DNA from: a virus
Taxonomy: Duplodnaviria; Heunggongvirae; Uroviricota; Caudoviricetes
Reading direction: 5' to 3' (one strand)
Length of the DNA stretch: 64,000 nt
Virus record (IMG/VR): IMGVR_UViG_3300031344_000001
Part shown: piece after piece, positions 19,585 through 57,014 of the stretch
How the letters are laid out: every line of letters begins with the position of its first letter
Position numbering within the stretch: the stretch's first letter is position 1
The notes under the pieces: model-generated
Database searches by the model: none
The model's input: the letters and a program-made list of their open reading frames with translations, nothing else
Told to the model about the DNA's origin: nothing
Program-made: the position numbers and the translations under genes

Positions 19585-19887
19585 GTGGACGCGGACCAGG
19601 ACCTCCTCGCGGCGACCTCGCTCCTGCGTTCCGCGCTCGCCGACGCGAACGGCAAGCTCCGCGCGGACGATGCTCGTCGGTTGGCGGGCTTCGAGCGGCG
19701 GACGCGCCTCCGCGCGCACGTCATCGCCCTCGCGATGCGCGACCTCGGTTGGGATCGCGGGCGCTACCGTTTCAACGGCGTGCTCGCGCCGGCCTACGCG
19801 CGCGGGAGTTCCCTGGAGCGCGAGATCATCCTCGACGTCGAGCGCGGTGCGGACGGCCAACTCGTCGTGAAGCGGAGGGACCCATGA
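19585..19887 (+). CDS. Stand-alone paralog of the primase-helicase C-terminal (winged-helix-like) domain
   Basis: ALADANGKLRADDA...AMRDLGWDRGRYRFNGVLAPAYARG...ERE aligns with ALGNRTGKLKVSDA...AIRELGWERKRKRFDGALEYAYVKG...QRE of 53135..55387. AAGGA SD before GTG. Confidence 0.75.
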   Translation: MDADQDLLAATSLLRSALADANGKLRADDARRLAGFERRTRLRAHVIALAMRDLGWDRGRYRFNGVLAPAYARGSSLEREIILDVERGADGQLVVKRRDP

Positions 19888-20723
19888 GCGCGCGGAGTCG
19901 TACGACGAAGCGCCAGGCTGCCAAGTCGGCCCTGAGGCCCCTCGGGTCTCCCCCGGCGCTGCACAGCGACGCTTCGCCCGAGTGGGGGACGCCGATGATC
20001 CTGCGGCGCTTCTCGGCCTGCGTGCTGAGCCCGGCCGCGATGGGGATGGCGATCGACCTCGACTACGCCACCTCGGCGTACTGGCAGCAGTGGTGGGACG
20101 AGGCCGATCGTCCCCACGCCTTCCTCGACGGATCGAAGGGCCGCGACGTGCTCGTCGAGGCCGACCGCCGCGCCGCGCAACCGCGGCTGGGCTCGGGGCA
20201 CTTCAACGCGCCGGGCACTGGCGGCGGCGAGATGGTCCAGCAGTGCTGGGAGCTGTTCGAGGAGGACCACCGCAAGGAGAAGCTCGGCTCGGGCTTCTGG
20301 ATGGGGTACTCCGTCGAACAATTCGGGTCGCTCCAGAACGTCGGTGAGCGCAACCCGCTCACGACGGACGCGGACGACCTCATCACGACGATCGTGCCGA
20401 GCCGCCGCGCGCAGTACGTGCTCCACCCTGACCAGCTCGTCGCGATCACGAAGAAGAAGCAGAAGCGGCGCGAGCGCCGGAGCAAGCAGTGGCTCGTCGA
20501 GCAGCGCCTGATCGAGAGGCTGCGCACGCGCACGGACGACGCCCCTGTCGGCGCTGGGGCGCCCTCGCACCTCTCCTACCTGACCGTGCTCTGGCACCGC
20601 GAGCGCGCGGTGCGCCGGCAGCAGATGAGCGCCGCGTGGAAATTCCTCGCCGAGCAGCGTCTCGACAAGAAGTCGCTGCTCCACAAGTTCGAGGTGATCG
20701 GTCCGCTGGAGGCTCGCAAGTGA
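19884..20723 (+). CDS. Divergent phage Dam-like DNA adenine methyltransferase-fold protein
   Basis: EWGTP, IDLDYAT, HFNAPG (NPPY position), SRRAQY and APSH. Confidence 0.55.
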   Translation: MSARSRTTKRQAAKSALRPLGSPPALHSDASPEWGTPMILRRFSACVLSPAAMGMAIDLDYATSAYWQQWWDEADRPHAFLDGSKGRDVLVEADRRAAQPRLGSGHFNAPGTGGGEMVQQCWELFEEDHRKEKLGSGFWMGYSVEQFGSLQNVGERNPLTTDADDLITTIVPSRRAQYVLHPDQLVAITKKKQKRRERRSKQWLVEQRLIERLRTRTDDAPVGAGAPSHLSYLTVLWHRERAVRRQQMSAAWKFLAEQRLDKKSLLHKFEVIGPLEARK

Positions 20724-21158
20724 CCAAGCTGTTCCGCGGCTGTCGCTACGAGGTGTACGTGCACACCCCGAACAAGGGCTTGTGGTCGCGGCACTCGTCG
20801 TTCGGCGAGGCGCAGCGGTCGTTCCGTGCGGCGGTGAACAACCAGCGCGGTGACCACGCGGTGGGCACGCGCGTCGAGCTGGCCGACGTCTACGGAGGGG
20901 TGGCCCAGGCCCTCGACAGTAAGGTGGGGCGGGCGTGAGGGACTTGAGACAGGAGTTCGAGGCTAGCGTCACGTCGGTGTTCGACGTGATGGCCGCGGCT
21001 CAAGGGCGTGCGTACACGTCCCTCGAGATGGAGGAGTTTCTGGCGGAGTTGGGGGCTGCGCACGTCGCGGCTCTTGCGTTGCTCACGGGACGGTCGGATG
21101 AGCAGTCCGTGCTGGAGCGCGCCGCCCGGCGTCTCCGCGCGCGTGCGTTGGGGGAACC

Positions 21159-21518
21159 GTGAAGCGTGAGGATCGCGAGCAGCTTCGAGCTGCGGCTGCC
21201 TTGGCGCTGGCCGCGACGCGCTGTCGGGCGTTGACAGGCGCGAACGACGACGACTGGGAGATCCAGACGTCGAACTCGTTCCGGCGCATTGGCGTGCATG
21301 GCGGAGGGGACGGCGACGTGCTGTGCGCGACGACGCACCGGTACGACGGGCACCCGGACCTCCTCGCGCCGCGTGGCGTGCTCGAGTACATCGTCTCCGC
21401 GCAGCCGTGCGTCGTGATCGAGCTGCTCGACCGCCTCGACGCGGTGGAGGCCGAGCTGGAGATGATCGCCGCCGTGGAGCTGGCCAAGATCGCCGCGATC
21501 ACCAAGGAGCCCCGATGA
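21159..21518 (+). CDS. Ead/Ea22-like protein
   Basis: W...DGHPDL...YIVSAQPCVVIELLDRL pattern. Confidence 0.55.
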   Translation: MKREDREQLRAAAALALAATRCRALTGANDDDWEIQTSNSFRRIGVHGGGDGDVLCATTHRYDGHPDLLAPRGVLEYIVSAQPCVVIELLDRLDAVEAELEMIAAVELAKIAAITKEPR

Positions 21519-22078
21519 GCCTCCGTGCCGAGAGCCCGACACCAGAACGGGGATGCGATCCGAAGGATTGCACCGGTTGCGGAGGTAAGAAGGGCGCCCC
21601 GCTCGCGGCGATCGTCTACGTCGGCACCGATCGGAACGTCCCCGCGACCAAGCTCGTGCTCTGCGAGGAGTGCGGGCGAGACGCGGCGAACGCGATCGGT
21701 TTCATGTGCGTTCGCGATGGGGGCTGGTCAAAGATCGAGCCGCGGAAGCGCAAGCCGGTGAAGGAGTCCTCGCGGTGAAGCCGCAGCCTTCAAAGCGCTA
21801 TGTCGTGCACGCGCTGGGCGTCGATGTGCTGGTCACCTTCGACGCGGACAAAGCAGGGCGATCGATGGTGAGTCCGACGGCGCAGACGCTACGGTGCGTC
21901 CGTGACGCGCGGGCTGCCGGTCGAGCTTGCGTCGCGAAAGCGCAAGCTCGTGAAGGGGGCGCTGTGAAGCGGCGGAAGCGGAAGTCGAAGTACCCCGGGC
22001 AGTACATCGTGCACGTGCATGGGACTACCGTGGCAGTTACCGTGCTTGTCCGGTTAACACCCAAGAAGTGAACAACTA

Positions 22079-22534
22079 ATGAAGATCGTAAACCTCACCC
22101 CGCACGCAATCACGATTCCTGAGACAGCCCACCCGGAACAGGGCGCTTGGACATTGCCGCCGTCTGGTACGGTAGCGCGCGCGAACGAACTTGCCGTCTT
22201 CGCCGGATGGATCGACGACATTCCTACGTCGCGAATCAGCTATGGCTCTGTTCAGGACTTGCCCGATCCAGAGTGGACCGTACTTCCAAACCCTTGCGAT
22301 AAACCTGGCGCGGTCCCTGAGGGAAGTCGGTTTTGTCTCGCGTGCGGAGCGACGGACGGCCATGTTCCAGGCTCGCCGCGAGTGCCTGCCGCATATTACG
22401 TCGTATCAACGATCGCGGCAGAAGCGGCACGTCGTGCCGGCCGAACAACGGAGGATCTGCTCGTGCCTGGGCAGCAACTTCGGGATGGCGCTGGGCGCAT
22501 CATCGGATGCCGATCGCTTGCGAGGGTTGGGTGA
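22079..22534 (+). CDS. Conserved phage hypothetical protein
   Basis: MKIVNLTPHAI...PPSGTVAR...DLLVPG...RDGAGRIIGC family pattern. Confidence 0.7.
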   Translation: MKIVNLTPHAITIPETAHPEQGAWTLPPSGTVARANELAVFAGWIDDIPTSRISYGSVQDLPDPEWTVLPNPCDKPGAVPEGSRFCLACGATDGHVPGSPRVPAAYYVVSTIAAEAARRAGRTTEDLLVPGQQLRDGAGRIIGCRSLARVG

Positions 22535-22547
22535 CAACCGGACAAGC

Positions 22548-22748
22548 ATGGCAGTTACCTTCAACGCAAACGAAGAGGCCCGTGTGAAGGTCAAGGCGTC
22601 GGCCCTCGGGCTCACCGTCGAGGACCTCGTCGCGAAGGCAGCTCGCGACAAGGCCAACCGCGTGGGTTGGAGTTGTCAGGATGAGCTGCACGCCTTGATC
22701 TCGCGGGCAGTCTCCGCGGTGGGCGCGCCGAAGCGGAGTGGACGGTGA
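22548..22748 (+). CDS. Small ribbon-helix-helix-like protein
   Basis: VTFNANEEARVKVKASALGLTVEDLV. GTGA-coupled to the next gene. Confidence 0.5.
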   Translation: MAVTFNANEEARVKVKASALGLTVEDLVAKAARDKANRVGWSCQDELHALISRAVSAVGAPKRSGR

Positions 22749-24631
22749 AGCTGCGCGTCTCTGACGATCTCTCCCTCGCCGCCGACTTCGTGACGGCGAC
22801 TGCGGGCATCTTCGCGACGAAGGGGCAGGGCAAGTCGCACCTCGCCCAGGTGATCGCCGAGGAGATGCTGGAGAGCGGCCAGGTCATCGTCGCGATCGAT
22901 CCGACCGACGTGTGGAGCGGTTTGCGATCGAGCGCGGACGGCAAGCGCGACGGTTACCCGATCCTGGTCGTCGGTGGTGACCACGGTGACTTGAAGCTCG
23001 ACCCGGAGCCCGGGGCGGGAACGCGCCTCGCCGAGGCGATCGTCGCCGAGCGCTTCTCGTGCGTGGTCTGCACGGACGGTGTCGACGACACCCGCGCGAT
23101 CCGTTTCGCGCGCGAGGTCCTGGAGACGATCTACAAGAAGAACCGCGAGCCGATCCACGTGTTCGTGGACGAGGCCGACTGCTTCGCGCCGCAGCAGCCC
23201 AAGGAGGAGGAGGACTACCGCTGCATTCGCGCGATGGCGCACGTCGTGCGGCGCGGGCGCAAGAAGGGTATCGGCTCGACGCTCATCACGCAGCGCCCCT
23301 CCGAGCTCAACGCGAGCGTGCGCAGCCAGGTGGAGATGCTGTTCGTGCTCGGCATGCTCCACGACCTCGACATCGGCGCGGTCGAGAAGTGGTTGCGCTT
23401 GCGCAAGAAGAAGCGAGGCAACGAGGCGGCCTTCGCGCGCCAGGAGGAGATGATCGACTCGCTCGACTCGCTCCCGCGCGGCGACGCCTGGGTGTGGGCT
23501 CCGCGCCTCAAGATCCACCAGCGTTTCCGCGCGCGCGTGAAGCGCACGTTTGACTCGGGAGCGACGCCCAAGCCTGGCCAGAAGGTGCGCGCGGCCAAGC
23601 GCCTCGCGCCGGTGGACATCCAGCGTCTCGGGTCGGCGATCACCGAGGCAGCCAAACGCCAGAAGGAGAACGACCCGGCCGAGCTGAAGCGCCAGGTCAT
23701 CGCGCTCCGCAAGGAGGTGTCACGCCTCGGCGAGGTGCATGCGCTCTCTGCGACGAGCACCGCGGCCCAGAAGGTCAAGGAGAAGATCGTCGTCAAGGAG
23801 GTCGAGGTCGTGAAGGCCGCGGACCTTCGGCGGCTGGAGGACCTCGTGAAGAAGATCGACAAGCTCGTTCTGCGCGTCACCGGCACCAACGCGGAGTTGG
23901 AGCTGCACCTCACGGGGCTGCGGGCGGAGGCGGGCAAGCTCAAGGAGGTCGCGGCACGCGTGACGGCGTTCCGCGCCAAGGGCGGTGACGCGGGCAAGCT
24001 CGTCGCTGACGTGGTAGCCCTTGCCCCGGACGAGCCTTCCGTGCCGAAGCCTCCGCGGCCGGTCCTGCCGTCCGTGAACGTGAGCGTGACCCCGCGCTCG
24101 ACGAAGAAGTCTGTCCCGACGACGAACGTTGCGCATGCCGTCGACCTCAAGCCCGCGCACCTGCGTCTCCTGTCCGCGATCGCGTGGTGGGAGAGCATCG
24201 GCGTTCCCGCGCCCGATCTCGGGGGCGTGGCGTTCGTGGCGAAGACCTCGACGAAGTCGTCGGCGTTCGACAACAACCGGTCGCGCCTTCGCGCGGGCGG
24301 CTACATCGACTATTCGTCGGGCGGGCGCGTGCAGCTGACCGAGGCTGGTCGTGCGCTCGCGCCGGTGCCGGACCTACCGCCCACGAACGCGGCGCTGCAC
24401 GACGCGATCCTCGGGGAGGTCACGCCCGCGCACGGGCGCATGCTGCGCGTTCTCATCGCAGCGTACCCGGATGAGATGGCGCTGGAGGCGTTTGCCAAGG
24501 GTGCGGGTACCAGCGTGACGTCGAGCGCGTTCGACAACAACCGGTCGTGGCTGCGCGCTCGCGGGCTCGCCGAGTACCCGCGCACGGGGTACGTGCGCGC
24601 GACGCGGCTCCTGTTCCCGGAGGGGTCATGA
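22745..24631 (+). CDS. HerA/DUF87-like P-loop ATPase with coiled coil and two C-terminal winged-helix repeats
   Basis: ATKGQGKSH, AIDPT, FVDEAD, RRGRKKG and ITQRPS. Repeat SSAFDNNRSxLRAxG x2. Confidence 0.8.
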   Translation: MKLRVSDDLSLAADFVTATAGIFATKGQGKSHLAQVIAEEMLESGQVIVAIDPTDVWSGLRSSADGKRDGYPILVVGGDHGDLKLDPEPGAGTRLAEAIVAERFSCVVCTDGVDDTRAIRFAREVLETIYKKNREPIHVFVDEADCFAPQQPKEEEDYRCIRAMAHVVRRGRKKGIGSTLITQRPSELNASVRSQVEMLFVLGMLHDLDIGAVEKWLRLRKKKRGNEAAFARQEEMIDSLDSLPRGDAWVWAPRLKIHQRFRARVKRTFDSGATPKPGQKVRAAKRLAPVDIQRLGSAITEAAKRQKENDPAELKRQVIALRKEVSRLGEVHALSATSTAAQKVKEKIVVKEVEVVKAADLRRLEDLVKKIDKLVLRVTGTNAELELHLTGLRAEAGKLKEVAARVTAFRAKGGDAGKLVADVVALAPDEPSVPKPPRPVLPSVNVSVTPRSTKKSVPTTNVAHAVDLKPAHLRLLSAIAWWESIGVPAPDLGGVAFVAKTSTKSSAFDNNRSRLRAGGYIDYSSGGRVQLTEAGRALAPVPDLPPTNAALHDAILGEVTPAHGRMLRVLIAAYPDEMALEAFAKGAGTSVTSSAFDNNRSWLRARGLAEYPRTGYVRATRLLFPEGS

Positions 24632-26596: not shown

Positions 26597-26842
26597 ATGA
26601 CACAGGCACAGGCAGCGACCGGCAGCACCACCAACGGCACCACCAACGGCAACGGCAACGGCAACGGCAGCCCCAACGGCAGCCCCAACGGCAACGCCGG
26701 CAGGCAGGCGAAGGTCCTGACGGCGATCGACGCGATCACGAAGATCACCAAGATCCTCGAGCCGCTGTCGCTGACGGATCGAAAGCGCGTGCTTGCGTTC
26801 GTCAACGAGGAGCACAGCGAGAGCACCGCAGGTAACGCGTAA
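26597..26842 (+). CDS. Small protein with Asn-Gly repeat and AIxAITKITKILEPLS...RKRVLAFVN module
   Basis: TAAGGAG SD. The module is duplicated at the end of 55415..56212. Confidence 0.75.
   Translation: MTQAQAATGSTTNGTTNGNGNGNGSPNGSPNGNAGRQAKVLTAIDAITKITKILEPLSLTDRKRVLAFVNEEHSESTAGNA
26722..26807 (+). repeat. 86-bp dispersed repeat, copy 1 (copy 2 at 56122..56207)
   Basis: Direct alignment shows 5 mismatches. Confidence 0.9.
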
Positions 26843-26862
26843 GGCGCCGTCGAGGAGTTCGC

Positions 26863-33482: not shown

Positions 33483-33483
33483 C

Positions 33484-35761: not shown

Positions 35762-35764
35762 CGC

Positions 35765-37278: not shown

Positions 37279-37344
37279 CGGCGCTTTGGCCGCGCTTCGG
37301 CGCGGCTTGAACCAACGAACGCACGAAAAAAAGGACGCACGCAC

Positions 37345-41570: not shown

Positions 41571-43589
41571 GTGAGCGCGACTAGGGCCCAGAAGACGGCC
41601 GGGTGGCTCCAGACGCCGCTCTTCGAGCCGGCACTGACGTGGACGCCGACGCCGGTCTCGCAGATGCCCGCGTGGACCGACGCCAAGCGGGTCTGCGTCG
41701 ACGTCGAGTGTCGCGACGACCATCTCTACGAGCTGGGCCCGGGTGTCCGTCGTGGCGGCTACGTGTGCGGCGTCTCGTTCGCGATCGAGGACGGCCCTGC
41801 GCACTACCTGCCGATTCGTCACGAGGGTGGCGGCAACCTGTCCGCCGACAACGTCTGGGCGTACCTGCGCGATCAGGCGAGCGCTTTCTGCGGCGAGGTG
41901 GTGTTCAACTCGGCGCCCTACGACCTCGACTACCTATGGGAGAACAAGGTCGAGTTCACCAAGGTCCTCTTCCACCGCGACGTCCAGGTCGCCGAGCCGC
42001 TGCTCGACGAGCTCCAGAAGAAGTACGGGCTCGACGCGATCTGCGCGCGCCGCGGGTTAGTCGGCAAGGATGAGAGCAAGCTCCGCGAGCACGCCAAGGC
42101 ATGGGGCATCGATCCCAAGAAGGACCTCTGGCGTCTGCACGCTGGCGCGGTCGGCAACTACGCGATCGGCGACGTGGTCGCGCCGCTGCCGCTTCTGCGC
42201 GTGCAGGAGAAGGAGATCGAGGAGCAGAACCTCCGCGAGACGTACGACCTCGAATCGAGGGTGACTCCGGCGCTGGTGCGCATGACGCGCCGAGGGATGC
42301 GCGTCGACCTCGACGAGATGGACCGCGTCGAGACGTGGGCGAAGGGGCGCTTGGGAGAGTACCTCGATCGGATTCATTCCCTGACGGGTGTCCGGATCGG
42401 GTCGATCAGCAACGCCGAGGAGGTCGGTCGCGCGCTGGTGAAGCACGGCGTCGAGGTGCCGACGAAGATCCACGGAGGCACGGGCAAGAAGATGTACTCG
42501 GTCGTCAAGCTGTGGCTCCAGCAGCAGACGGACGAGGTCTCGAAGTCCGTGATCGTGGGCCGCGAGTTCGCGAAGCTCTTGGGGACCTACGTCGGGGGCT
42601 TTCGCAAGCACCTCGTCAAGGATCGCCTCCACCCGACATTCAAGCAGCTTGTCGGCGCCTCGGACGAGGACGAGGACAACGGGGACGAGGACGGCGACTC
42701 GAGCGGCGCGCGCTTCGGGCGCTGCGCTGCGAAGCACCCCAATGTGCAGGCCCAAATGAAGCGCTCGAAAGAGATCCAAAAGCGCTGGCGCAAGGTGCTC
42801 ATCCCCGACGAGGGGAAGCGCTGGTTCAAATGCGATCTTGGGCAACAAGAACCGCGGCTGACGGTGCACTTCGCCGAGTTGTGCAAGCTTCCGGGGGCGA
42901 CGCAGGCAGGGAACGCTTTCCGTGACGACCCGTGCTTCGACCCGTACCAACTCATGGTCGAGCTGTGCAAGACGCCGCTGGATCTTGACCTGAAGCAGCT
43001 GCGAGATGACCTCAAGGAGGTCTACCTCGCGCGCTGCTACGGGATGGGCGGCGGCAAGATCTCAAAGAAGCTCAGGCTGCCGACGGTATGGAAGACGAAC
43101 GAGAGCACAGGTTTCACCTACGAGGCGGCGGGTCCCGAGGCGCAGGGCAAGATCGATCGTTTCGACCGCGGTGTTCCGTACGTCAAGGCGCTCGCCAGGC
43201 TCTGCACCAAGAGCGCGAAGGCGAAGGGGTACATCATCGCGCTTGGCAACCGTCGTGTGCGCTTCGAGCAGGACGAGAACGGCGAGATTCGTGACGAGCA
43301 CAAGGCAATCTCGAAGCTGATCCAAGGAAGTGCAGCGCACCAAACGAAGAAGGCACTCGCCGAATTGGATGCCGCAGGATTTCCCATCCAACTCACGGTC
43401 CACGACGAGTTCGGTTATTCGGGGGACGATGAGAATGAAGCGCGCCGCATGGGAGAGATCACCTGCGACGCCGTCGTGATTCGTGTGCCCTTTCGTTGTG
43501 ACATCGAGGCGGGACTGAGCTACGGCGACTTGACGAAGCTGTTCACGGTGGCGAGCAGGCACACGCTGCTCTCGAAGGCGGCAGCGTGA
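41571..43589 (+). CDS. Family A DNA polymerase with 3'-5' exonuclease domain
   Basis: ExoI DVECRD, ExoII FNSAPYDL, ExoIII YAIGD. Motif A DLGQQEPR, B K...YGMG, IQGSAA, C VHDE. Confidence 0.92.
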   Translation: MSATRAQKTAGWLQTPLFEPALTWTPTPVSQMPAWTDAKRVCVDVECRDDHLYELGPGVRRGGYVCGVSFAIEDGPAHYLPIRHEGGGNLSADNVWAYLRDQASAFCGEVVFNSAPYDLDYLWENKVEFTKVLFHRDVQVAEPLLDELQKKYGLDAICARRGLVGKDESKLREHAKAWGIDPKKDLWRLHAGAVGNYAIGDVVAPLPLLRVQEKEIEEQNLRETYDLESRVTPALVRMTRRGMRVDLDEMDRVETWAKGRLGEYLDRIHSLTGVRIGSISNAEEVGRALVKHGVEVPTKIHGGTGKKMYSVVKLWLQQQTDEVSKSVIVGREFAKLLGTYVGGFRKHLVKDRLHPTFKQLVGASDEDEDNGDEDGDSSGARFGRCAAKHPNVQAQMKRSKEIQKRWRKVLIPDEGKRWFKCDLGQQEPRLTVHFAELCKLPGATQAGNAFRDDPCFDPYQLMVELCKTPLDLDLKQLRDDLKEVYLARCYGMGGGKISKKLRLPTVWKTNESTGFTYEAAGPEAQGKIDRFDRGVPYVKALARLCTKSAKAKGYIIALGNRRVRFEQDENGEIRDEHKAISKLIQGSAAHQTKKALAELDAAGFPIQLTVHDEFGYSGDDENEARRMGEITCDAVVIRVPFRCDIEAGLSYGDLTKLFTVASRHTLLSKAAA

Positions 43590-44443
43590 ACAAGCAAAGC
43601 GTGATCGGCGAGATCTGGTGGCCGTCCATCGGCGATTTGGAAGTCTTGTTCGACAGAGATCCGCTCACAGGCTGTTGGAACTGGAAGAAGAGGATCAAAA
43701 AAGCGGCGTACGACTCCGGCTACGGCGTTTACTCGCTCAAGTGCGTCATTGACGGATTTAATTGGTTTAGGGCGATCCCGGCGCATCGTTTAGTCTACAC
43801 AATTCATCGTGGACAGATCCCAGACGGTTTGGACCTGGATCATTTGTGTCGCAATACGCGCTGCGTGAATCCTGAGCATCTTGAACCAGTCACTCCGCAG
43901 GAGAACATTCGGCGCGCACTTTCCTACAAGAGTGGGACTAAGGAGCGCTGTCCGAGGGGACACGTGCTTGCTGCCGAAACACTTGGAAATTCAGTCTGGC
44001 AGTCGTTTTGTAGGACGTGTCGTAATGAAGGCGCGAAGAAACGGAGAATGCAGGACGAGCAGTCCTATACGCCGATCCCGCGTGACACACAGAAGCGTAA
44101 TCGCTTTGACCGTAAGATCCTTGCGGAGCTTTTGGCAGCGATCGACAGTGGTGAGACACCCGCCGATATCGCACGCCGATACAACTTCAATCCGATCTTG
44201 GTCTGGCATCTACGGCAGCGCTACAGACCAGGCTTCAAAGAGAAGACGTACGCCGCGATTCCTCGCGATCCTACAGATCGTCGTCGTTACGACCTAACGG
44301 CCACTGCAACGCTGATGGCGGAATTTAAGCGTGGTGACTCTGTTGCACAGGTGTCTGAGAGGCACAATTACAATCCAATTCTTGTTTGGCATTTCAAGAA
44401 AAGGATTGGTGTTAACAGCGGTATGAAGGAGGAGACTGCATGA
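43586..44443 (+). CDS. HNH homing endonuclease
   Basis: GCWNW...GYG...AHRLVY...DHLCRNTRCVNPEHLEPVT..EN, CPRGH. Duplicated YNxNPILVWH. Low GC. Lies directly after the polymerase. Confidence 0.88.
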   Translation: MNKQSVIGEIWWPSIGDLEVLFDRDPLTGCWNWKKRIKKAAYDSGYGVYSLKCVIDGFNWFRAIPAHRLVYTIHRGQIPDGLDLDHLCRNTRCVNPEHLEPVTPQENIRRALSYKSGTKERCPRGHVLAAETLGNSVWQSFCRTCRNEGAKKRRMQDEQSYTPIPRDTQKRNRFDRKILAELLAAIDSGETPADIARRYNFNPILVWHLRQRYRPGFKEKTYAAIPRDPTDRRRYDLTATATLMAEFKRGDSVAQVSERHNYNPILVWHFKKRIGVNSGMKEETA

Positions 44444-44715
44444 TCAAGCGTGACGAGATCGAGGACACCGCGTCTTGCTTCAACAAGGCCGGCGACAGAG
44501 AGCGCCTCTTCGTGTTGTTGGCCCGTGATCCGGCGGCGCCCACCGCGATCCGCGCGTGGATCGCGGAGCGGGTCCGCCTGGGCGTGAACACGCCGGACGA
44601 CGCGCAGGTGCGCGAGGCCCTAGAGTGCGCCTCGCTCATGGAGGGTGAGCGCGCCGAGATCGAGGCGGCGAGCCGCCAGCAAGCCTTCTGGGCTGGTGTT
44701 GGAGTCGCGCTGTGA
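44440..44715 (+). CDS. Conserved phage hypothetical protein
   Basis: SCFNKA...FVLLARDPAAP...W pattern. Confidence 0.65.
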   Translation: MIKRDEIEDTASCFNKAGDRERLFVLLARDPAAPTAIRAWIAERVRLGVNTPDDAQVREALECASLMEGERAEIEAASRQQAFWAGVGVAL

Positions 44716-45344
44716 ACGTCGCGATCTCACGGTTCTCGTCCGTGCACGACGTCCACCCCGCCCGGGAGGACCGGTCCTGGTCGGACTTCGTCACGCTGCT
44801 GTCGGAGCCGATCATCACGCCGTGCACGCTGGCGAGCTGCGCGCGGTCGGCCTGCCCGCACAAGCGCGGGGCGTGCTGGTCACCGGCCGTGTCCGCTGAC
44901 GGGACCCGGCGCGGCGAGGTCGCGGCGCTCTCGCTGCTCGTTTTCGACGTCGATCGCGCGACCGACGCGCAGGTCTACGCGCTGCGTGGGCGCCTCGACG
45001 GTCACCGGTACCTGATCCACGCGACGCACGCGGACCGACCGGACGACCGCTTCGTGCGGGTCGTGGTCACGCTCTCGCGGCCGGTCCCGCGGGTGGCGTG
45101 GCGGGCGTTCTGGGCCGTCGCGCAGCAGACGATCGGCCCGATCGCGGATTCGACCTGCGCCGACGCGGGTCGGATCTACTTCTTGCCGAGCGTCCCCCGT
45201 GACGCGGGGTACCTCGTCCAGGTGAACGAGGGGGAGCCGTTCGACGTCGACGCTGCCTTGGCGATGTCTGCGATCGCAGCGCTGGCGAATGGAGCGGGTC
45301 GTGTGGGCGGGGTTGCCAAGCGCACGGAAGGAGCGCTCCCATGA
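44712..45344 (+). CDS. Stand-alone paralog of the primase-helicase N-terminal primase domain
   Basis: C...HKRGACWSPAV, SLLVFDVD, HATHADRP, RPVPR..W..FW and DSTCADAGRIYFLPS match 53135..53780. Confidence 0.8.
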   Translation: MNVAISRFSSVHDVHPAREDRSWSDFVTLLSEPIITPCTLASCARSACPHKRGACWSPAVSADGTRRGEVAALSLLVFDVDRATDAQVYALRGRLDGHRYLIHATHADRPDDRFVRVVVTLSRPVPRVAWRAFWAVAQQTIGPIADSTCADAGRIYFLPSVPRDAGYLVQVNEGEPFDVDAALAMSAIAALANGAGRVGGVAKRTEGALP

Positions 45345-45706
45345 GCGTCAGTGAGAGGACCAGTAACGGAGAGAGGTTCGTGCTCGATTCGGACACCCTG
45401 CGCGTGTTGCCGGGGCAGACGGTTTTCATCACGCGACGTCCGCAGCAGCGCGTGGGGGTCTTCTACTGGCAGCGCTTCGTGGTCTCGAATCCCGAGCACT
45501 GGGACATCCACAATATCAGCGTCGGCAACTTCTCGCTGTTCCCGTCAGCGGAGGTCATCCCCGCGCAGCGCCTCCATCTGGCAGACCTCGAAAAGCTTGG
45601 ATGTCGCGTGGGCCAGGACTTCACGATCGCAGTGACGTACGTTGGCGATGACCCGACCGGTGAGCCGTTCGTGTGCGAAGTTTTCGGCCACGAGGCGCTC
45701 GCATGA
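45341..45706 (+). CDS. Conserved all-beta domain protein (ITRRPQ...VTYVGDDPTG)
   Basis: Aligns with the 5233 C-terminus and with 17054..17536. Confidence 0.7.
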   Translation: MSVSERTSNGERFVLDSDTLRVLPGQTVFITRRPQQRVGVFYWQRFVVSNPEHWDIHNISVGNFSLFPSAEVIPAQRLHLADLEKLGCRVGQDFTIAVTYVGDDPTGEPFVCEVFGHEALA

Positions 45707-50649: not shown

Positions 50650-50878
50650 GCGACATCTTGAATGATGATGGCGCTGCGGCGCACACGGTGGTCCGCTGCT
50701 CGGGCGTCAGTGACGATGGGCAGTGCGGGCGCGAGCAGGCGATTGCTTCCGATGCTGAGGGGGTCGGTGTGCGCGTGGCTTCGAGGGTCGCGCCCGACGT
50801 CGTTGCGTGGTTGTCCTCTTTCGGGTGGCGTCAGGCGAGCGGGCGCTGGTTGTGTCCTTTTTGCGCGGGGGGTCGGGC

Positions 50879-52600: not shown

Positions 52601-52700
52601 GCAGGTCGGTGCGCAGCATCGACGCGCGCTTGGGCCTGCGCGCGTCACGCGTCTTCGACGCGCGCGCGTCCATGCGCGTGCGCTGCACGGAGGTCTGCGC

Positions 52701-53138
52701 GTGAGGCCCGAGTCGGCGATGTGGCGGAAGCTCCGCCCACATTTGGTGACTGCCAAGCTCGACCCGGTGCGCGTCGAGAACCCGATCCATCCGGGCACAC
52801 CTGATGTCAACCTCTGCACGGGGCTGTGGATCGAGTTGAAGTACCTCCTCGGCTGGCCTGCGCGCGCGGGGAGCATCGTCCGGATTGATCATTTCACTCC
52901 GCAGCAGCGCGTCTGGCTGTTCCGGCGCTGGAAGTACGCGCCCGGGTCGACGATGCTCTTGCTCGAGGTGCGCACGAGTGGTCTGTGGCTCCTCTTCGAC
53001 GGCGATGTTGCCGCCAGGGTAGTGGGGCGCGCGAACGCGGCGGATCACCGCGCGAACGCGCGCGCGGTCCTCGCCGAGCGCGAGCTCTCGGAGCTTCCGA
53101 AGATTCTCACCGCGATCGAAAGGCCCCGCGCGGCGTGA
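52701..53138 (+). CDS. VRR-NUC / Holliday-junction-resolvase-like PD-(D/E)xK nuclease
   Basis: ESAMW...RVEN...GTPDV...WIELK...QQRVW. Confidence 0.78.
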   Translation: MRPESAMWRKLRPHLVTAKLDPVRVENPIHPGTPDVNLCTGLWIELKYLLGWPARAGSIVRIDHFTPQQRVWLFRRWKYAPGSTMLLLEVRTSGLWLLFDGDVAARVVGRANAADHRANARAVLAERELSELPKILTAIERPRAA

Positions 53139-55387
53139 TCGACCACGTCGCAATCTCGGCGCTTCGCGACAAGCACGACTCCGCTCCTCGGCGGTCGACG
53201 GTGCCGTGGGGCAAGCTCGTCGAGGCGTTCCGTAAGGTGCGCAAGACGGCGTGCGTGGTGGCGAACTGCAAGCACCACCTGTGCGCGCACAAGAACGGTA
53301 AGGCGTGGTCGCCCGCCGTCTACCCGCCGGGGACGCCGCGTCAGAAGCAGTTCGTCGAGGAGGTCTCGCTCCTGGTCGTCGACCTCGACCACCTGAGCGA
53401 CGAGCAGCTCGCTGCCGCGCTCGCGCCGCTCGTTCCCTACCAGCGGATCCTGCATGCAAGCCACTCGGACCGTCCGTCCGGCGTCACGGTCTGCACGTGC
53501 GGGAGCGAGCCCGGCGCGCTTCACGGGCCGGACTGCCCGTCGCGCGTCGACCGTTGCGTGCGCGCGATCATCACGCTCACGCGTCCGGTCACCCGCGACG
53601 AGTGGCCGCGGTTCTGGCCGACCGCGATGGCCTTCCTCAAGCAGCCCGCAGACCCGTCCACCTGCGACGCGAACCGGCTCTACTACCTGCCGTCGAGGCC
53701 CGGCGATGCGAGCACGTTCTTCTTCGAGGCGCACGACGGTGGTGCGCTCGACGTCGAGGCGGTCCTGGCGATCGCGCCGCCGGAGGCGCCGTCGGTCGCC
53801 GAGCAGCTCCAGGTCGATCCCGACGGTGTCGTCGAGCCTGGGCAGCGTCACGCGATGCTCAAGTCGATCGCCGGGGCGCTCCGCTTCCGCGGTGCGGGGC
53901 TCGCCGAGATCGAGAACGCGCTCCTGGCCGCGAACAGCGCGCGCTGCCACCCGCCCAAGTCTGTGGCGGAGGTCAAGGCGATCGCGCGCTGGGCCGCCGA
54001 GCAGCCGATGACGAACCGTCCGAAGGGCGGCGGTGGCGGCGGTGGTGGCGGCGGTGGCGGCGGTGGCGGTGGCGGCGGCGACGGCGGCGGTAGTGACAGC
54101 GACGGTCATGACGGGGGAGACGCGGCTGACGATCCGGACTTCCTGCGTGACAAGTACGGCACCCCGTACAACACGCAGTTCAACCTCGAAGTCGCGATCC
54201 GAAAGATGGGCGTGCGCCTCCGCTACGACGAGTTCTCTGGCGACGAGATCGTCGAGAACCTGCGCGGTTACGGCCCACGCTTCGATGATCCGGCGACGAT
54301 CAATCTTCGCCTGAAGGTCGACTCGATGTTCAAGTTCCTGCCCGGCCGCGAGCTGTTCCGCGACGTGACGAGCAACATCGCGCGTCGGAACCGCTTTCAC
54401 CCGGTGCGCGACTACCTCACCGCGCTTGCCTGGGACCAGCAGCCCCGGATCGAGCGCTGGCTCATCGACTACGCCGGCGCGCCCGACACGCCGTACGTGC
54501 GCGCGGTGTCGCGGATCGTTCTCGTCGCGGCGTGCCGGCGGATCCGGAAGCCTGGGTCCAAGTATGACGAGATGGTGATCCTCGAGAGCCCTCAAGGCAC
54601 TGATAAATCAAGTGGACTGCGTGCACTCGCGTGCGACGACGACTGGTTCACCGACGATCTCCCGCTCGGCAGCGACACGCGCCGGTTCATGGAGAGCACG
54701 GTCGGCAAGTGGATCGTCGAGGCTGGCGAGTTGAAGGGCATGGGCCGTGGCGACGTCGCGGCGCTCAAGGCGTGCCTCTCGCGACAGCGCGACGAGGCAC
54801 GCATGGCGTACGGCCACAAGAACACGCGCGTGCCGCGGCAGTTCGTGATCATCGGGACGACCAACGAGACCGACGGGTACCTGCGCGACGCGACGGGCAA
54901 CCGGCGCTTCTGGCCGGTGCGCATCCAGCGCTTCGACCTGCCGCGCCTCCGGGCCGACCGCGACCAACTCTGGGCGGAGGCGGCCGAGGCCGAGCGGCTC
55001 GGCGAGTCGATCCGCCTCGACCCGCGGCTCTACGAAGCCGCGGCGGTCGAGCAGGAGGCGCGCTTGCGCGGCGACGACCCGCTCGTCGACGTGCTTCACC
55101 GCGCGCTCGGCAACCGTACGGGCAAGCTCAAGGTGTCCGACGCCTACCTCATCTGTGGGCTGGAGGCGGGCAGGGTCAACCAGGACCAGATCGAGCGGTT
55201 CGGCCGCGCGATCCGCGAGCTGGGCTGGGAGCGCAAGCGCAAGCGCTTCGACGGCGCGCTCGAGTACGCCTACGTCAAGGGGGACGCCTCGCAGCGCGAG
55301 GTGGAGCTCGTCGTCGAGTACGACCCGCACATGCGGAGCGTGCGCATCGAGGTCGACGCGCACCAGCAGCCGCCCGTCCCGAACTAG
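53135..55387 (+). CDS. Primase-helicase: primase domain, PriCT-like, poly-Gly linker, VirE/VapE ATPase, C-terminal winged-helix-like domain
   Basis: VVDLD, GQRHAML...N..RCHPP..EV, FHPVRDYL, WDQQPRI, PGSKYD, QGTDKS, GTTN and DATGNRRFWPV. Confidence 0.88.
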   Translation: MIDHVAISALRDKHDSAPRRSTVPWGKLVEAFRKVRKTACVVANCKHHLCAHKNGKAWSPAVYPPGTPRQKQFVEEVSLLVVDLDHLSDEQLAAALAPLVPYQRILHASHSDRPSGVTVCTCGSEPGALHGPDCPSRVDRCVRAIITLTRPVTRDEWPRFWPTAMAFLKQPADPSTCDANRLYYLPSRPGDASTFFFEAHDGGALDVEAVLAIAPPEAPSVAEQLQVDPDGVVEPGQRHAMLKSIAGALRFRGAGLAEIENALLAANSARCHPPKSVAEVKAIARWAAEQPMTNRPKGGGGGGGGGGGGGGGGGGDGGGSDSDGHDGGDAADDPDFLRDKYGTPYNTQFNLEVAIRKMGVRLRYDEFSGDEIVENLRGYGPRFDDPATINLRLKVDSMFKFLPGRELFRDVTSNIARRNRFHPVRDYLTALAWDQQPRIERWLIDYAGAPDTPYVRAVSRIVLVAACRRIRKPGSKYDEMVILESPQGTDKSSGLRALACDDDWFTDDLPLGSDTRRFMESTVGKWIVEAGELKGMGRGDVAALKACLSRQRDEARMAYGHKNTRVPRQFVIIGTTNETDGYLRDATGNRRFWPVRIQRFDLPRLRADRDQLWAEAAEAERLGESIRLDPRLYEAAAVEQEARLRGDDPLVDVLHRALGNRTGKLKVSDAYLICGLEAGRVNQDQIERFGRAIRELGWERKRKRFDGALEYAYVKGDASQREVELVVEYDPHMRSVRIEVDAHQQPPVPN
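54026..54091 (+). repeat. GGC/GGT tract encoding a poly-Gly linker
   Basis: A long Gly run between the primase and ATPase parts. Confidence 0.9.
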
Positions 55388-55414
55388 TGCGAGAACAGCA
55401 ACACGAAGGAGAAG

Positions 55415-56212
55415 ATGCAGATGCAGACGCAGATGATCGCAGCCACGCAGCCGAAGTCCGTGACGGACTACCTCGACGCCCTCACCTGGGACGGTACGCC
55501 GCGAATCGATCGCTGGCTCGTCGACTACGCGGGCGCCGAGGACACGCCCTACGTCCGCGGGGTGTCGCGCGCGATGCTGGTCGCGGCCGTGCGTCGCGCT
55601 CGTCACCCGGGGAGCCCTCTCGACCAGGTGCTGGTGCTCGAAGGGCCGCAGGGCTGCGGCAAGTCGACGGCGCTCCGCGTACTCGCCGCGGACGACGCTT
55701 GGTTCACCGACGCCCTGCCGTCCGTCAAGGACGCCCGGCAGGTCATCGAGGCGACGGCGGGCAAGTGGATCGTTGAGGACTCCGAGTTGGCGGCCAAGAT
55801 GGCAGCTGCGGGGTTCAAGGCGTTCTTGTCGGCGACGCACGACGAGGCGCGCCTCGCGTACCAGCGCGAGAGCACGCGCGTGCCGCGGAGCTTCGTGGTC
55901 GTCGGGACGACCAACGCGACCGACGACTACCTGCGCGACGCGACGGGCAACCGGCGCTTCTGGCCGGTGCGCGTGCGCCGCTTCGACCTCGAGCGCCTGG
56001 CGGCGGCTCGTGACCAGCTCTGGGCCGAGGCCGCGGTCGCCGAGGCCGCGGGCGCGTCGATCGACAGCGTTCCCCCCGAGACGCAGACTGGGACCCTTTC
56101 GACCAACGGCAACGTCAAGCAGGCGATCGAAGCGATCACGAAGATCACCAAGATCCTCGAACCGCTGTCGCCGACGGATCGCAAGCGCGTGCTCGCGTTC
56201 GTCAACGCTTGA
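55415..56212 (+). CDS. Stand-alone VirE/VapE ATPase paralog fused to the 26597-type module
   Basis: WDGTPRID, EGPQGCGKST, GTTN and DATGNRRFWPV. 45 bp (55928-55972) identical to 54878-54922. Confidence 0.85.
   Translation: MQMQTQMIAATQPKSVTDYLDALTWDGTPRIDRWLVDYAGAEDTPYVRGVSRAMLVAAVRRARHPGSPLDQVLVLEGPQGCGKSTALRVLAADDAWFTDALPSVKDARQVIEATAGKWIVEDSELAAKMAAAGFKAFLSATHDEARLAYQRESTRVPRSFVVVGTTNATDDYLRDATGNRRFWPVRVRRFDLERLAAARDQLWAEAAVAEAAGASIDSVPPETQTGTLSTNGNVKQAIEAITKITKILEPLSPTDRKRVLAFVNA
56122..56207 (+). repeat. 86-bp dispersed repeat, copy 2
   Basis: Matches 26722..26807. Confidence 0.9.
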
Positions 56213-56221
56213 GAGGAGAAG

Positions 56222-56440
56222 ATGGCGCAGGTGCACAACGTTCCGGCAAAGACAAAGCTGACCCCGGTGAACCGCCCCTCGATCAGCGTGTCCGGTAGGA
56301 CCTACGACCGCCTTCGCGCGGCGCGGCCCTCCGGGGGCCTGGCGGCCTACGTCGAGGCGATCGTTACGGCCGCGCTCAATGATCCGGCGATCGCGGCGCG
56401 CGTGGTCGACGAGTGCCGGCGGGCGGACGCGCTCTCGTGA
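56222..56440 (+). CDS. Ribbon-helix-helix-like protein
   Basis: GAGGAG SD. SISVSGRTYDRLR. Confidence 0.6.
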   Translation: MAQVHNVPAKTKLTPVNRPSISVSGRTYDRLRAARPSGGLAAYVEAIVTAALNDPAIAARVVDECRRADALS

Positions 56441-56561
56441 CCGCAGTGGTCGTCATCGCGGCCCTCGCCGCCCTCGTAGCGCTCGGTGTCGAGACCGTGC
56501 GCTGGGTGCTCCGGCCCGAGGCCCGGCGGCTCCGTAGGATCCGAAAGATTGGAGGTAGGCG

Positions 56562-57014
56562 ATGACTCGTGAGAACAGGGATACCGACGATGTACGGAGG
56601 TTCCTGGAGGCAACAACGGCGGGCAAGTGGCTCGTCGAGGATAAGAACGTCGTTGCCGCTGCCGCCGTCCCCGTGCTCAAGGGACGCGCCTTCGTGATCG
56701 TTGGCACGAGCGGGTCGACGGACTACTTGAAGGACACGACTGGCGACCGGCGGTACTGGCCTGTCGTCGTCCCGACGGCGCCCACGGCACCCCTCTCGCA
56801 GGAGGCTCACGCTCGCCTCGACGCGCTGATCGCCGCGGGGCCCCTCTCCACACTGATCACTGTGGAGCCCGGCTGCGACGGCGTCCACGTCGACGGGGCG
56901 CCGTCGCAGCACCTGTGTACGCGCTGCTACCCGGACCCGCGGGGAGATCTCCCCGCGCAAGAAGATGAAGCGGGCGAAGACGATCGCCGAGATCCCGCGC
57001 AGGAGATGGAGTAG
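56562..57014 (+). CDS. Truncated VirE-derived protein
   Basis: RRFLEATTAGKWLVE...FVIVGT...YLKDTTGDRRYWPV, with no Walker A. Has TAGGAT and a GGAGGT SD. Confidence 0.65.
   Translation: MTRENRDTDDVRRFLEATTAGKWLVEDKNVVAAAAVPVLKGRAFVIVGTSGSTDYLKDTTGDRRYWPVVVPTAPTAPLSQEAHARLDALIAAGPLSTLITVEPGCDGVHVDGAPSQHLCTRCYPDPRGDLPAQEDEAGEDDRRDPAQEME

Follow-up and report, generated by a model that had tools for sequence, protein, structure and literature searches.

Four genes in this viral DNA are local members of four old families, each derived from one segment of a primase-helicase-type protein, and they coexist with a full-length primase-helicase gene, here called the parent. The best overall explanation, to which we assign a probability of roughly 0.55, is that these segment-derived families have been retained by selection and fill accessory roles that we infer for each gene below. 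The window (the whole stretch of 64,000 nucleotides that was analysed) constitutes the replication-gene region of a virus-like element of very large size, whose host is a high-G+C soil bacterium. An earlier note on this DNA had described a primase-helicase whose primase, ATPase and C-terminal domains, together with a further ATPase fragment, also exist as stand-alone genes. All five ORFs are indeed present, and each fragment aligns to the part of the parent from which it had been said to come. An all-against-all BLASTP comparison of ~100 coding-like ORFs in the window returned nothing at E<1e-4 beyond the primase-helicase set, one weak pair unrelated to it and a shared tail of 31 residues. Since the window has hardly any other paralogy, the pattern is non-random, and the paralogy of primase-helicase parts exceeds chance.

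BLASTP, Pfam and ortholog alignment identify the parent (53135..55387, + strand, 750 aa) as a replicative initiator-helicase in which an AEP primase, PriCT_1, a VapE SF3 ATPase and a winged-helix C-terminal domain (CTD) are fused. Its start at 53135 matches the N-termini of 25 orthologs, and its domains follow the order Cys/His cluster and AEP primase (residues ~1-215), PriCT_1 (231-285), poly-Gly linker, collar, VapE-like SF3 ATPase (428-643, Pfam) and CTD (about 645-750). The P-loop, SPQGTDKS, is a variant whose conserved form is QGT[D/N]KS, and in relatives an intein sits within it. Selfish elements are abundant in the lineage: besides this intein there are HNH genes at 18372..19184 and 43586..44443, and relatives also carry TnpB and a group II intron reverse transcriptase.

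The claim that the fragments are paralogs of the parent holds for homology, but the tree and the alignments reveal old lineages rather than simple paralogs of the resident gene. Recent copying from the resident parent was rejected for all four genes, as each lineage predates the radiation of the sampled full-length genes. All four families are patchily present across relatives, and because related genomes replicate without some of these genes, the set is accessory. The note had also judged the fragments to be intact and maintained, not the debris of decay. This view is borne out by their conservation in relatives, by dN/dS values below 1 and by the retention of key family motifs, and the start signals are as described or better (a GTGA overlap at 44712 and ATGA overlaps at 19884 and 56562). 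The dN/dS (omega) check that it had proposed gave 0.28-0.52 across the four families, with every upper limit below 1 (0.45-0.78, 95% bootstrap): 0.31 (0.22-0.45) for the stand-alone ATPase core, VapE2; 0.49 (0.33-0.74) for the small remnant at 56562; 0.52 (0.36-0.78) for the AEP copy; and 0.28-0.40, with upper limits of at most 0.65, for the winged-helix copy at 19585. These values are two to five times that of the parent (0.17; 0.06 for its ATPase core). Substitution patterns thus indicate purifying selection on all four families, and the four paralogs appear to be working accessory genes kept by selection. We rank their proposed roles, from most to least likely, as those of the winged helix, the AEP copy, VapE2 and the small remnant.

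The winged-helix copy of the parent CTD (19585..19887, + strand, 100 aa), recognised by BLASTP, family search and structure modelling, is 39% identical to parent residues 653-728 (E 3e-13). Its family comprises 18 other clusters of 91-115 aa, is just 32-36% identical to any CTD and has a recognition helix unlike that of the CTDs. A confident model (pLDDT 93) supports the predicted winged-helix topology. Outside its own family, it comes closest to Atlas structures of C-termini from VapE, D5_N/DUF5906 and Prim-Pol helicases (TM 0.50-0.58), and a Foldseek search with this product gave no significant match (best VIA Z 5.3), the structural matches being generic. The gene is the first of a ~42-kb co-directional block that contains replication genes, is joined to the next gene by the ATGA overlap at 19884, and always keeps this leading position, being likewise the first gene after the strand switch in four relatives. 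The block that it heads begins with a HerA/FtsK-like ATPase.

The note had placed this gene first beside a candidate origin at 19190-19520, 34 kb from the parent. Its first-gene position stands, but the origin is not supported, as there is no iteron array; instead we find short palindromes, two direct 15-mers and a modest drop in G+C to 48%. The divergent intergenic region (19185..19584), bounded on its other side by an HNH endonuclease-like gene (18372..19184, - strand; phrog_3106, E 7e-18), holds the palindrome GGCTGATC-GGG-GAGATCAGCC, an inverted pair of GGGGAGATCAGC, and GAGATCTGCTCCG, while the 15-mers, TGATCGCT.T.GTTC, lie just ahead of the 19585 Shine-Dalgarno. Several of these elements are conserved in two relatives (L015 and L016), and no sigma-70 consensus was found in 19185..19584. 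The leader repeats are confined to this site within the window, so nothing ties the 19585 protein to sites near the parent gene. We propose that the protein is a DNA-binding regulator, the first product of the replication-gene block, whose probable targets are the conserved direct repeats of its own leader; sites or surfaces that the initiator CTD uses may be additional targets.

The stand-alone AEP primase copy (44712..45344, + strand, 210 aa), identified by BLASTP to the parent, motifs and structure modelling, is 35% identical to parent residues 4-208 (E 2e-34). It carries the CxxxxC...CxHK cluster and the DxD, HxxHxD and D...R motifs, keeps every family-invariant residue, and is without PriCT, ATPase and CTD. 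A 26-residue insert of the close parents is missing both from AEP copies and from deep-branching full-length forms. A primase fold is supported by a confident model (pLDDT 86), whose best match is the AEP domain of the cyanophage S-2L PrimPol (E 1.5e-5, probability 1.0). The family has 34 other clusters, and the gene occupies a fixed, conserved position, always adjoining PolA; the flanks sampled in L009, L011, L012 and L014 do not contain it, and the L013 copy seems to carry a frameshift. Its GTGA stop/start overlap is with a 91-aa partner gene (44440..44715, + strand; omega 0.20), and in some relatives the two form one polypeptide of ~290 aa. Between PolA and this pair lies a low-G+C, free-standing HNH_3 homing endonuclease gene with an HTH (43586..44443, + strand), which is missing at this site in L008. 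The AEP copy and its partner may constitute a second, helicase-independent primase or primase-polymerase, possibly used for repriming or polymerase-coupled priming.

VapE2 (55415..56212, + strand, 265 aa), found by BLASTP, Pfam, motifs and tree, is 64% identical to parent residues 424-613 (E 5e-81), and the VapE-like Pfam domain is detected in it as well. It has a canonical P-loop, GPQGCGKST, resembling that of the solved VapE helicase 7pds, along with Walker B, sensor 1 and the GNRRF block; collar and CTD are missing. In the tree, the VapE2 copies group in a single clade (99/97 support) that excludes 42 full-length ATPase domains, on branches ~5-15 times longer than those of the parents from the same genomes. 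Of the 75 core positions invariant in the parents they retain 54-66; reading frames have stayed open and catalytic motifs have persisted across dS above 1, with the sensor-1 Asn lost in two of five copies. VapE2 is missing in L014, L011 and L012. Relatives whose parents are 53-74% identical have no ATPase copy, so this copy, at least, is dispensable. Copy ends are chimeric and variable across genomes: here the last ~31 residues of VapE2 are borrowed from an 81-aa gene (26597..26842, + strand), the donor or a sibling of this tail, whose 3' part shares 94% DNA identity over 86 nt with the VapE2 3' end, and elsewhere we find an extra 200 aa (L009) or a CTD-VapE2 fusion (L010). In relatives, self-loading and full activity require the collar and CTD. 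VapE2 has neither and therefore cannot serve as an initiator; most likely it would work with the parent ring, as an auxiliary or modulating ATPase subunit.

The small VapE remnant (56562..57014, + strand, 150 aa; BLASTP, Pfam and motifs) is 36% identical to parent residues 514-597 (E 3e-11), and its Pfam VapE-like piece spans 46 positions (profile 137-182; 38.5 bits, cut-off 25). As the note had claimed, it has no Walker A. Its motifs are, in order, a Walker-B-like KWLVED, IVGTSGS.DYLKDTTGDRRYWPV, a C-H-C-C motif (CDGVH...LCTRCYP) and an acidic tail ending EME, the second corresponding to the sensor-1/arginine-finger strand pair, in which the sensor Asn is no longer present. The family has at least 31 representative clusters, mostly of 52-180 aa. 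The promoter ascribed to this gene was not recovered, with no sigma-70-type promoter detectable; the gene is translationally coupled, its ATG overlapped (ATGA) by the stop of a conserved gene for a 42-aa hydrophobic, transmembrane-like peptide (56437..56565, + strand) with orthologs in L008, L009, L012 and L013. The conserved cassette downstream of the parent also includes a 72-aa gene with a ribbon-helix-helix-like N-terminus (56222..56440, + strand; omega 0.78, limits including 1), whose product had no Pfam match, and ends with a 77-aa HTH-like protein (57018..57251, + strand; omega 0.22). Having kept only the strand pair from the ATPase and gained new conserved motifs, the metal-binding knuckle and acidic tail, the remnant appears from its motifs to be a neofunctionalised mini-protein, possibly an adaptor or regulator.

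Partial duplication at and around the primase-helicase gene keeps recurring. In relatives, 3' copies of the parent yield CTDs 95%, 87% and 72% identical to their own parents, a graded series of ages, with the two most recent 91-92% identical at the DNA level, and L013 carries a peptide-CTD fusion. A few such products have been retained long by selection and changed in specific ways.

The foremost alternative, which we nevertheless consider unlikely, is that the paralogs have functions unrelated to the parent, the AEP copy serving as a repair polymerase and the winged helix as an ordinary early-gene transcription factor. The age of the families, their own partners and neighbours (the 91-aa domain and PolA for AEP, the HerA/FtsK-like ATPase block for the winged helix) and the divergent recognition helix would suit this. 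However, VapE2, the remnant and the recent CTD copies directly follow the parent in all genomes in which they occur, a constancy that suggests co-expression and a linked role, and in most genomes VapE2 has gained no further domain through which it could act on a new substrate.

The note had suggested a repressor, a poisoning subunit, a free primase or decoys as possible roles. Use of the fragments in competition or counter-defence, either as truncated subunits that poison the helicase of relatives infecting the same cell (exclusion) or as decoys that engage host sensors of viral replication proteins, is improbable. The long VapE2 branches, the patchy, accessory presence and the location in a variable cassette fit such a use, and VapE2, having neither collar nor CTD, could conceivably enter or cap rings while giving no loading support (PMC9371898, PMC3375335). 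Against it, pairwise omega is well below 1 with no whole-gene sign of diversifying selection, the winged-helix and AEP copies hold fixed positions typical of core regulatory or replication genes, and no defence or anti-defence model matched the set beyond a weak match of the P-loop to VakA (E 0.0012).

Least probable is that the fragments are functionless by-products of recombination (partial duplications, homing-endonuclease/intein repair tracts or illegitimate joins), pieces whose frames remain open for some time before they disappear: the 95% and 87% identical CTD copies, chimeric ends and fusions, patchy distribution, frameshifted-looking L013 copy, raised omega and a lineage rich in selfish elements (HNH, intein, TnpB, group II intron reverse transcriptase) are outweighed by omega limits below 1 in all four families, by the single old VapE2 clade with its intact frames and motifs, by tens of diverged clusters per family with stable lengths and positions, by the new motifs of the remnant and by the dedicated, sometimes fused, partner of the AEP copy.

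The old, selection-kept segment families described here share features with several known systems. Phage T7 gene 4 yields a 63-kDa primase-helicase and a 56-kDa helicase-only form, which are thought to form mixed rings. There too a primase-helicase coexists with a shorter form missing part of the primase, but the short T7 form arises from an internal start in one DnaB/SF4-family gene, whereas here the genes are separate and of the SF3 family, and mixed rings would be a matter of inference. Mycobacteriophage 'RecA-core-only' DnaB-like proteins are phage-encoded proteins with only the ATPase core of a replicative helicase family (PMC4523182); they resemble VapE2 in being core-only but belong to another helicase superfamily and are not described beside a full-length paralog and other domain copies. 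In adeno-associated virus, Rep78/68 coexist with Rep52/40, which are essentially the SF3 domain, and the core-only form does not stably self-assemble (PMC3375335). This likewise sets a full-length SF3 initiator-helicase beside shorter SF3-core proteins, but a promoter inside that very gene gives rise to the small Reps, which are identical in sequence, while VapE2 is a paralog that has diverged (64% identity) and has a P-loop unlike the parent's, and a packaging role is not indicated here.

OBPC (UL8.5) of herpes simplex virus 1 is a modulator of origin use. As with the 19585 gene, the DNA-binding C-terminal part of an initiator-helicase, UL9, is made separately beside the full-length form. OBPC is listed among known truncated isoforms, with reference to Baradaran et al. 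1994 (PMC7184758). It is N-terminally truncated, co-linear with UL9 and made from the same gene via an internal transcript with identical sequence, whereas the 19585 protein has its own gene 34 kb from the parent, shares only 39% identity with the CTD, belongs to a conserved family of its own and is encoded first in its block.

The closest solved relative is PriRep5 of the Staphylococcus aureus pathogenicity island SaPI5 (PDB 7pds), in which primase and helicase are fused, while SaPI1 encodes Pri and Rep1 as separate genes; the winged helix of the PriRep5 CTD binds the origin iterons, and both ATPase and helicase activity depend on it to reach their full level (PMC9371898). Against 7pds the parent gives E 5.5e-34 and VapE2 gives E 1.5e-30. 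Both systems have an AEP-type primase and a self-loading, VapE-family SF3 helicase with a C-terminal winged helix, and fused and split arrangements both occur in nature. In our case no iteron origin lies downstream of the primase-helicase gene, and the parent P-loop is the conserved variant QGT[D/N]KS, not GxGKS. Where a SaPI has either the fused or the split form, the fused protein here coexists with diverged stand-alone parts and a remnant.

The full-length primase-helicase (53135..55387, plus strand, 750 aa) combines an AEP primase domain with PriCT_1 (residues 231-285 in Pfam), a VapE-like SF3 ATPase domain (residues 428-643 in Pfam) and a winged-helix C-terminal domain (CTD; about residues 645-750), and its start is supported by the N-termini of 25 orthologs. 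All five ORFs named in the earlier note, this parent and four smaller genes, were found by alignment and Pfam searches to be present and to match the claimed parent segments. The primase copy (44712..45344) aligns with parent residues 4-208 (identity = 35%, E = 2e-34), the ATPase copy VapE2 (55415..56212) with residues 424-613 (64%, E = 5e-81), the predicted winged-helix copy (19585..19887) with residues 653-728 (39%, E = 3e-13) and a small remnant (56562..57014), which has an internal deletion, with residues 514-597 (36%, E = 3e-11). When about 100 coding-like ORFs of the window were compared all against all, the only other matches were one weak unrelated pair and a common 31-residue tail. 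The primase-helicase set is thus nearly the sole paralogy in the window, so the pattern is not the by-product of a generally repetitive genome.

Estimates of omega (dN/dS; Nei-Gojobori with bootstrap 95% limits) were 0.17 (0.13-0.21) for the whole parent and 0.06 (0.03-0.12) for its ATPase core, against 0.31 (0.22-0.45) for VapE2, 0.49 (0.33-0.74) for the remnant, 0.52 (0.36-0.78) for the primase copy and 0.28-0.40 (upper limits no higher than 0.65) for the winged-helix family. Purifying selection acts on all four copies, but is two to five times more relaxed than on the parent. The genes had been presented as domain paralogs of the resident primase-helicase; conserved, selected families they are, but old ones rather than copies of that resident gene. 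This evolutionary picture of the four families is solid.

VapE2 matches PF05272 (VapE-like) over profile positions 1-197 of 217 (E = 1.3e-63, 214.8 bits with a cut-off of 25) and the VapE helicase 7pds (E = 1.5e-30). The window copy has Walker A (GPQGCGKST), Walker B (KWIVED), sensor-1 (GTTN) and the arginine-finger block (GNRRFWPV), and every VapE2 copy has the P-loop GPQG[C/A]GKS, as 7pds does. VapE2 lacks both the 508-515 loop and the one that follows Walker B, and the sensor-1 Asn is replaced in the copies of two relatives (loci L008 and L009). The protein runs from about parent residue 424 to shortly past 626, without the collar (parent 335-423) and without the CTD. We considered VapE2 as a self-loading initiator-helicase of the SaPI Rep type and rejected this, since neither the collar nor a C-terminal winged helix is present. 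Loss of the DNA-contacting beta-hairpin was likewise dropped: when the essential PriRep5 lysine K591, 70 residues past Walker K521, was mapped onto the VapE2 alignment, most copies proved to keep a basic residue there (AYQR), and the loop actually missing corresponds to parent K534-G535-M536. VapE2 lies directly 3' of the parent in L008, L009, L010 and L013, and comparison of the parent-locus flanks found no VapE2 in L014, L011 or L012. In the tree, the five VapE2 copies form a single clade (support 99/97) outside 42 full-length ATPase domains, with terminal branches about 5-15 times as long as those of the full-length genes in these genomes, and they retain 54-66 of the 75 core positions that are invariant in the parents. 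Over 86 nt, the 3' end of VapE2 (56060-56212) shares 94% identity with the 3' portion of a gene 29 kb away (26597-26842), which encodes 81 aa with an Asn/Gly-rich repeat; this looks like either a recent recombination or a common C-terminal module.

The remnant matches VapE profile positions 137-182 of 217 only. It has no Walker A, and the sensor GTTN has become GTSGS in every member; a complete VapE-like SF3 ATPase was therefore ruled out, as both the P-loop and the sensor-1 Asn are missing. The remnant is of VapE descent without being one of that family's ATPases. Its own family comprises at least 31 representative clusters at E<=1e-10, mostly of 52-180 aa, and is built of two modules: the VapE sensor-1/arginine-finger strand pair (IGTSGS.DYL.D.TG.[RQ]RFWPV, the sensor Asn always replaced) and CDG.HDE.AP...LC[TS]RCFP followed by an acidic tail. 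Complex prediction of the remnant with parent residues 400-650 scored 0.00, the fold of the partner itself being uncertain in that prediction, and the score weighs neither for nor against an interaction. The remnant belongs to a conserved cassette 3' of the parent that consists, in order, of VapE2 (optional), a ribbon-helix-helix-like protein of about 70 aa, a 42-aa hydrophobic peptide, the remnant and a 77-aa HTH-like protein. The remnant ATG overlaps the stop of the 42-aa peptide gene, and L014, which is without VapE2, retains a 73-aa remnant-like gene. Consensus scans of 55300-57300 detected neither a sigma-70-type promoter nor a terminator (a weak test, as the consensus may not be that of the host). 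The promoter of its own that the earlier note had proposed for 56562 was thus not recovered, and the remnant is most simply read as part of an operon.

Partial duplications of the parent 3' end, of several ages, are found in the relatives. One CTD copy in L013 is 95% identical to its own parent (92% at the DNA level) and a second 72%, while a CTD copy in L010, fused ahead of its VapE2, is 87% identical to its parent (91% at the DNA level). At its N-terminus, the L013 copy with 95% identity is similar to the 42-aa cassette peptide. These graded duplications and joined ends mark the region 3' of the parent as a zone of recurrent partial duplication and joining, a few of whose products have long been retained. 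Four conserved, selected families from separate segments of the primase-helicase coexist with the full-length gene, and the duplication process behind them remains active.

For the primase copy (44712..45344), a Pfam search matched no family, while PHROG returned phrog_9765, annotated as DNA primase (E = 5.8e-17). The predicted structure (pLDDT 86) has as its best Foldseek match the AEP domain of the cyanophage S-2L PrimPol (6zp9_A; E = 1.5e-5, probability 1.00, TM 0.47-0.52), followed by LigD-Pol, RepB' and then the poxvirus D5/E5 primase domains, and supports the AEP / Prim-Pol catalytic fold. All family-invariant residues are retained in the stand-alone copy: D79 and the nearly invariant D81 (FDVD), H103, H106 and D108 (HATHAD), D146 and R154, with motifs I-III (the acidic, metal-binding DxD, the His-containing motif and the third, acidic one) assigned by pattern rather than by structural superposition. 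A 26-residue Cys/His insert found in close parents is missing both from the copy and from deep-branching full-length forms. The family includes 34 other clusters (44-65% identity), several of which share long contigs with parent orthologs; co-occurrence of the four families within one genome was checked inside 10-kb flanks. The family falls into two length classes, the longer of which is a fusion with the 91-aa gene (44440..44715; 77% identity) that overlaps the start of the copy in the window. Because of this fused class, the "free primase" proposed earlier is rather a two-part protein. In both the window (PolA at 41571..43589) and L008 the copy lies just 3' of PolA. Between PolA and the pair the window has a free-standing HNH_3 homing endonuclease gene with an HTH (43586-44443) of low G+C (about 47-52%), and L008 has no gene at that site. 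The gene 3' of the primase copy (45341-45706, with an ATGA overlap at 45341) is a weak paralog of 5233-5925, 40 kb away (29% over 105 residues, E = 1e-8).

The winged-helix copy (19585..19887) has a family of 18 other clusters (91-115 aa; 55-69% identity), which as a whole is only 32-36% identical to any CTD. Alignment of the 19 family members with 10 CTD sequences shows 11 common invariant columns and supports homology to the CTD of VapE-type helicases. The model (pLDDT 93) has the helix-strand-helix-helix-strand-strand order of a winged helix plus an extra hairpin. Foldseek against the PDB gave winged-helix matches only, all non-significant (best E = 0.28); VIA gave a top Z of 5.3, with nearly all matches winged helices and the NrS-1 primase-helicase C-terminus at Z 3.9. 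Past its own family, the ESM Atlas neighbours are C-termini of VapE, D5_N/DUF5906 and Prim-Pol helicases (TM 0.50-0.58). In the alignment and model, K24, R52, R60, R62 and R79 are conserved basic residues on or near the recognition helix and wing, which is only suggestive of sequence-specific DNA binding.

In the window as in four relatives, the winged-helix gene comes first past a strand switch; each of these relatives encodes a HerA-like ATPase about 2-3 kb downstream of it. One relative has the gene divergent from an XRE-type HTH gene, and GH25 lysozyme genes lie near one relative of the 19585 gene. Just 5' of the Shine-Dalgarno, the leader has two to three direct GATC-containing 15-mers, and its elements are conserved between genomes. 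A candidate origin had been placed beside this gene, at 19190..19520. We found two direct 15-mers and a few palindromes there, with G+C falling only to 48%. No tandem array was found, an iteron array is missing both there and from all other intergenic DNA of the window, and no intergenic region showed a local excess of k-mers; the origin assignment is thus unsupported. Consensus scans of 19050-19650 found no sigma-70 promoter or intrinsic terminator (again with a consensus that may not be the host's). The exact upstream repeats do not recur elsewhere in the window, including near the parent, and looser matches are at chance level. The region upstream of 19585 looks like a regulated promoter and leader. 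Two independent assemblies (L015 1-290 and L016 1-178) break off 180-290 bp before the start of their 19585 ortholog, which suggests strain-variable or repeated DNA just upstream or, in some relatives, possibly a genome end. The HerA/FtsK-like ATPase ortholog at L015 2335-5289 (984 aa) has a weak LAGLIDADG match and probably contains another intein.

In the parent itself, the P-loop (54596-54619, residues 488-495) has the form S.QGT[D/N]KS rather than GxxGxGKS. Every parent ortholog has a variant P-loop, most often of this form, which is conserved in dozens of the orthologs (P0006-P0125) down to about 50% identity, unlike the canonical P-loop of the adjoining VapE2 and of the solved relative 7pds. 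About 15 parent orthologs (among them L013 10001-13231, P0016, P0019, P0023, P0056, P0083 and P0092) contain an intein of about 345 residues with homing-endonuclease domains, and its site is the variant P-loop itself: it enters after the Walker Lys of QGTDK, has the form C...HN and is followed by SS, with the Walker Ser as the +1 residue. The P-loop after the Walker Lys is a classic intein site of essential ATPases, and this position of the intein argues that the variant P-loop is functional. Between PriCT_1 and the helicase part, a stretch of about 25 Gly residues from GGC-type codons (54026-54106) is probably a flexible linker. A 145-aa gene (52701-53138) that overlaps the parent start, is syntenic in relatives and matches phrog_2165 ("DNA helicase"; E = 1.2e-29) may encode an additional primase-helicase partner.

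Nearly all genes from 19.5 to about 62 kb of the window (G+C 61-70%) are on the plus strand, and this block encodes the HerA/FtsK-like ATPase, a HAD_SAK_2 protein, SNF2 and SF1 helicases, a family A DNA polymerase, an RNase T-like exonuclease and an AAA protein. Soil metagenomes contain many parent orthologs (53-83% identity), on contigs that reach 0.3-0.5 Mb, and for the proteins of the window itself the contig on record is 154,736 bp long. One match was to a Kofleriaceae MAG. Among deposited phage genomes we found no near relative, and protein-level phage matches to the parent cover the helicase half only (30-41% identity). The lineage is rich in selfish elements: the window has HNH genes at 18372..19184 and 43586..44443, and inteins are found in relatives. 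Relatives also have, within the replication-gene block, genes for TnpB/IS605 OrfB, a reverse transcriptase of the group II intron type and an IS1595 transposase (several sites in L011 and L012; L013 401-1258). Two adjoining 9-bp tandem arrays, ACCTGTAGA (x3.7) and CCACGAGGC (x4.2), occupy 7616-7708, apparently intergenic and upstream of 7789.

The set is accessory, since relatives lack some of the genes. What these proteins do we infer from the closest solved relative, SaPI5 PriRep5, in which origin repeats are recognised by the winged helix of the CTD and full ATPase and helicase activity depends on it (PMC9371898). On this basis a core-only VapE2 without collar and CTD could not serve as initiator and is more likely an auxiliary or modulating subunit. 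Most simply, the free winged helix, as the first product of a block that starts behind conserved repeats, would be a DNA-binding regulator; its own leader may be one target, and initiator sites or docking surfaces are possible others. The primase copy and its partner beside PolA would be a second primase or primase-polymerase; and the remnant would be a neofunctionalised small protein.

A more novel reading, to which we give about a one-in-five chance, is a replication-control kit built from the initiator's own parts in a clade of very large soil viruses. The winged helix, made first, would set when or where the initiator acts, by competition at the initiator's DNA sites or at the surface of the ATPase ring where the CTD docks. 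The collar-less, CTD-less ATPase with its canonical P-loop could enter or cap the ring, and the remnant, with its arginine-finger strand pair, zinc knuckle and acidic tail, could tune or block ring ATPase sites, either of the virus's own helicase or of that of co-infecting relatives. To the roles given above there are three alternatives of low probability. One is that the paralogs have functions unrelated to the parent. Slightly less probable is that they are tools of competition or counter-defence; defence-system models gave no meaningful match. Least probable are neutral by-products without function, against which the selection and conservation data count.

In this lineage of very large bacterial virus-like elements, the primase, ATPase and DNA-binding parts of the initiator each have a separate, diverged gene, alongside a derived mini-protein. 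Fresh partial copies still arise beside the parent, which provides a natural series with recent duplicates at one end and old, specialised genes at the other, useful for studying how fragments of essential machinery turn into regulators or auxiliary subunits. The large family of helicase-derived mini-proteins, and the conserved, intein-hosting, non-canonical P-loop in an essential helicase, are of interest for the SF3 helicase mechanism, and four small, easily expressed proteins are on offer with clear biochemical tests.

Each part is a member of a known family, be it the AEP primases, the VapE/D5 SF3 helicases or the winged-helix CTDs of the latter. Animal viruses make shortened replication initiators, from the same gene as the full-length form, that regulate or redirect replication, and T7 gene 4 is another example of a shortened form. 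Such shortened initiators include HSV-1 OBPC/UL8.5, which PMC7184758 lists, and the small Reps of AAV (PMC3375335). However, the HSV-1, AAV and T7 proteins are co-linear products of one gene, whereas here the genes are separate and diverged. Unlike those systems, this lineage has stand-alone genes for three different parts and a derived mini-protein, an ATPase copy that differs from its parent in the P-loop, and a CTD copy fixed at the head of a gene block.
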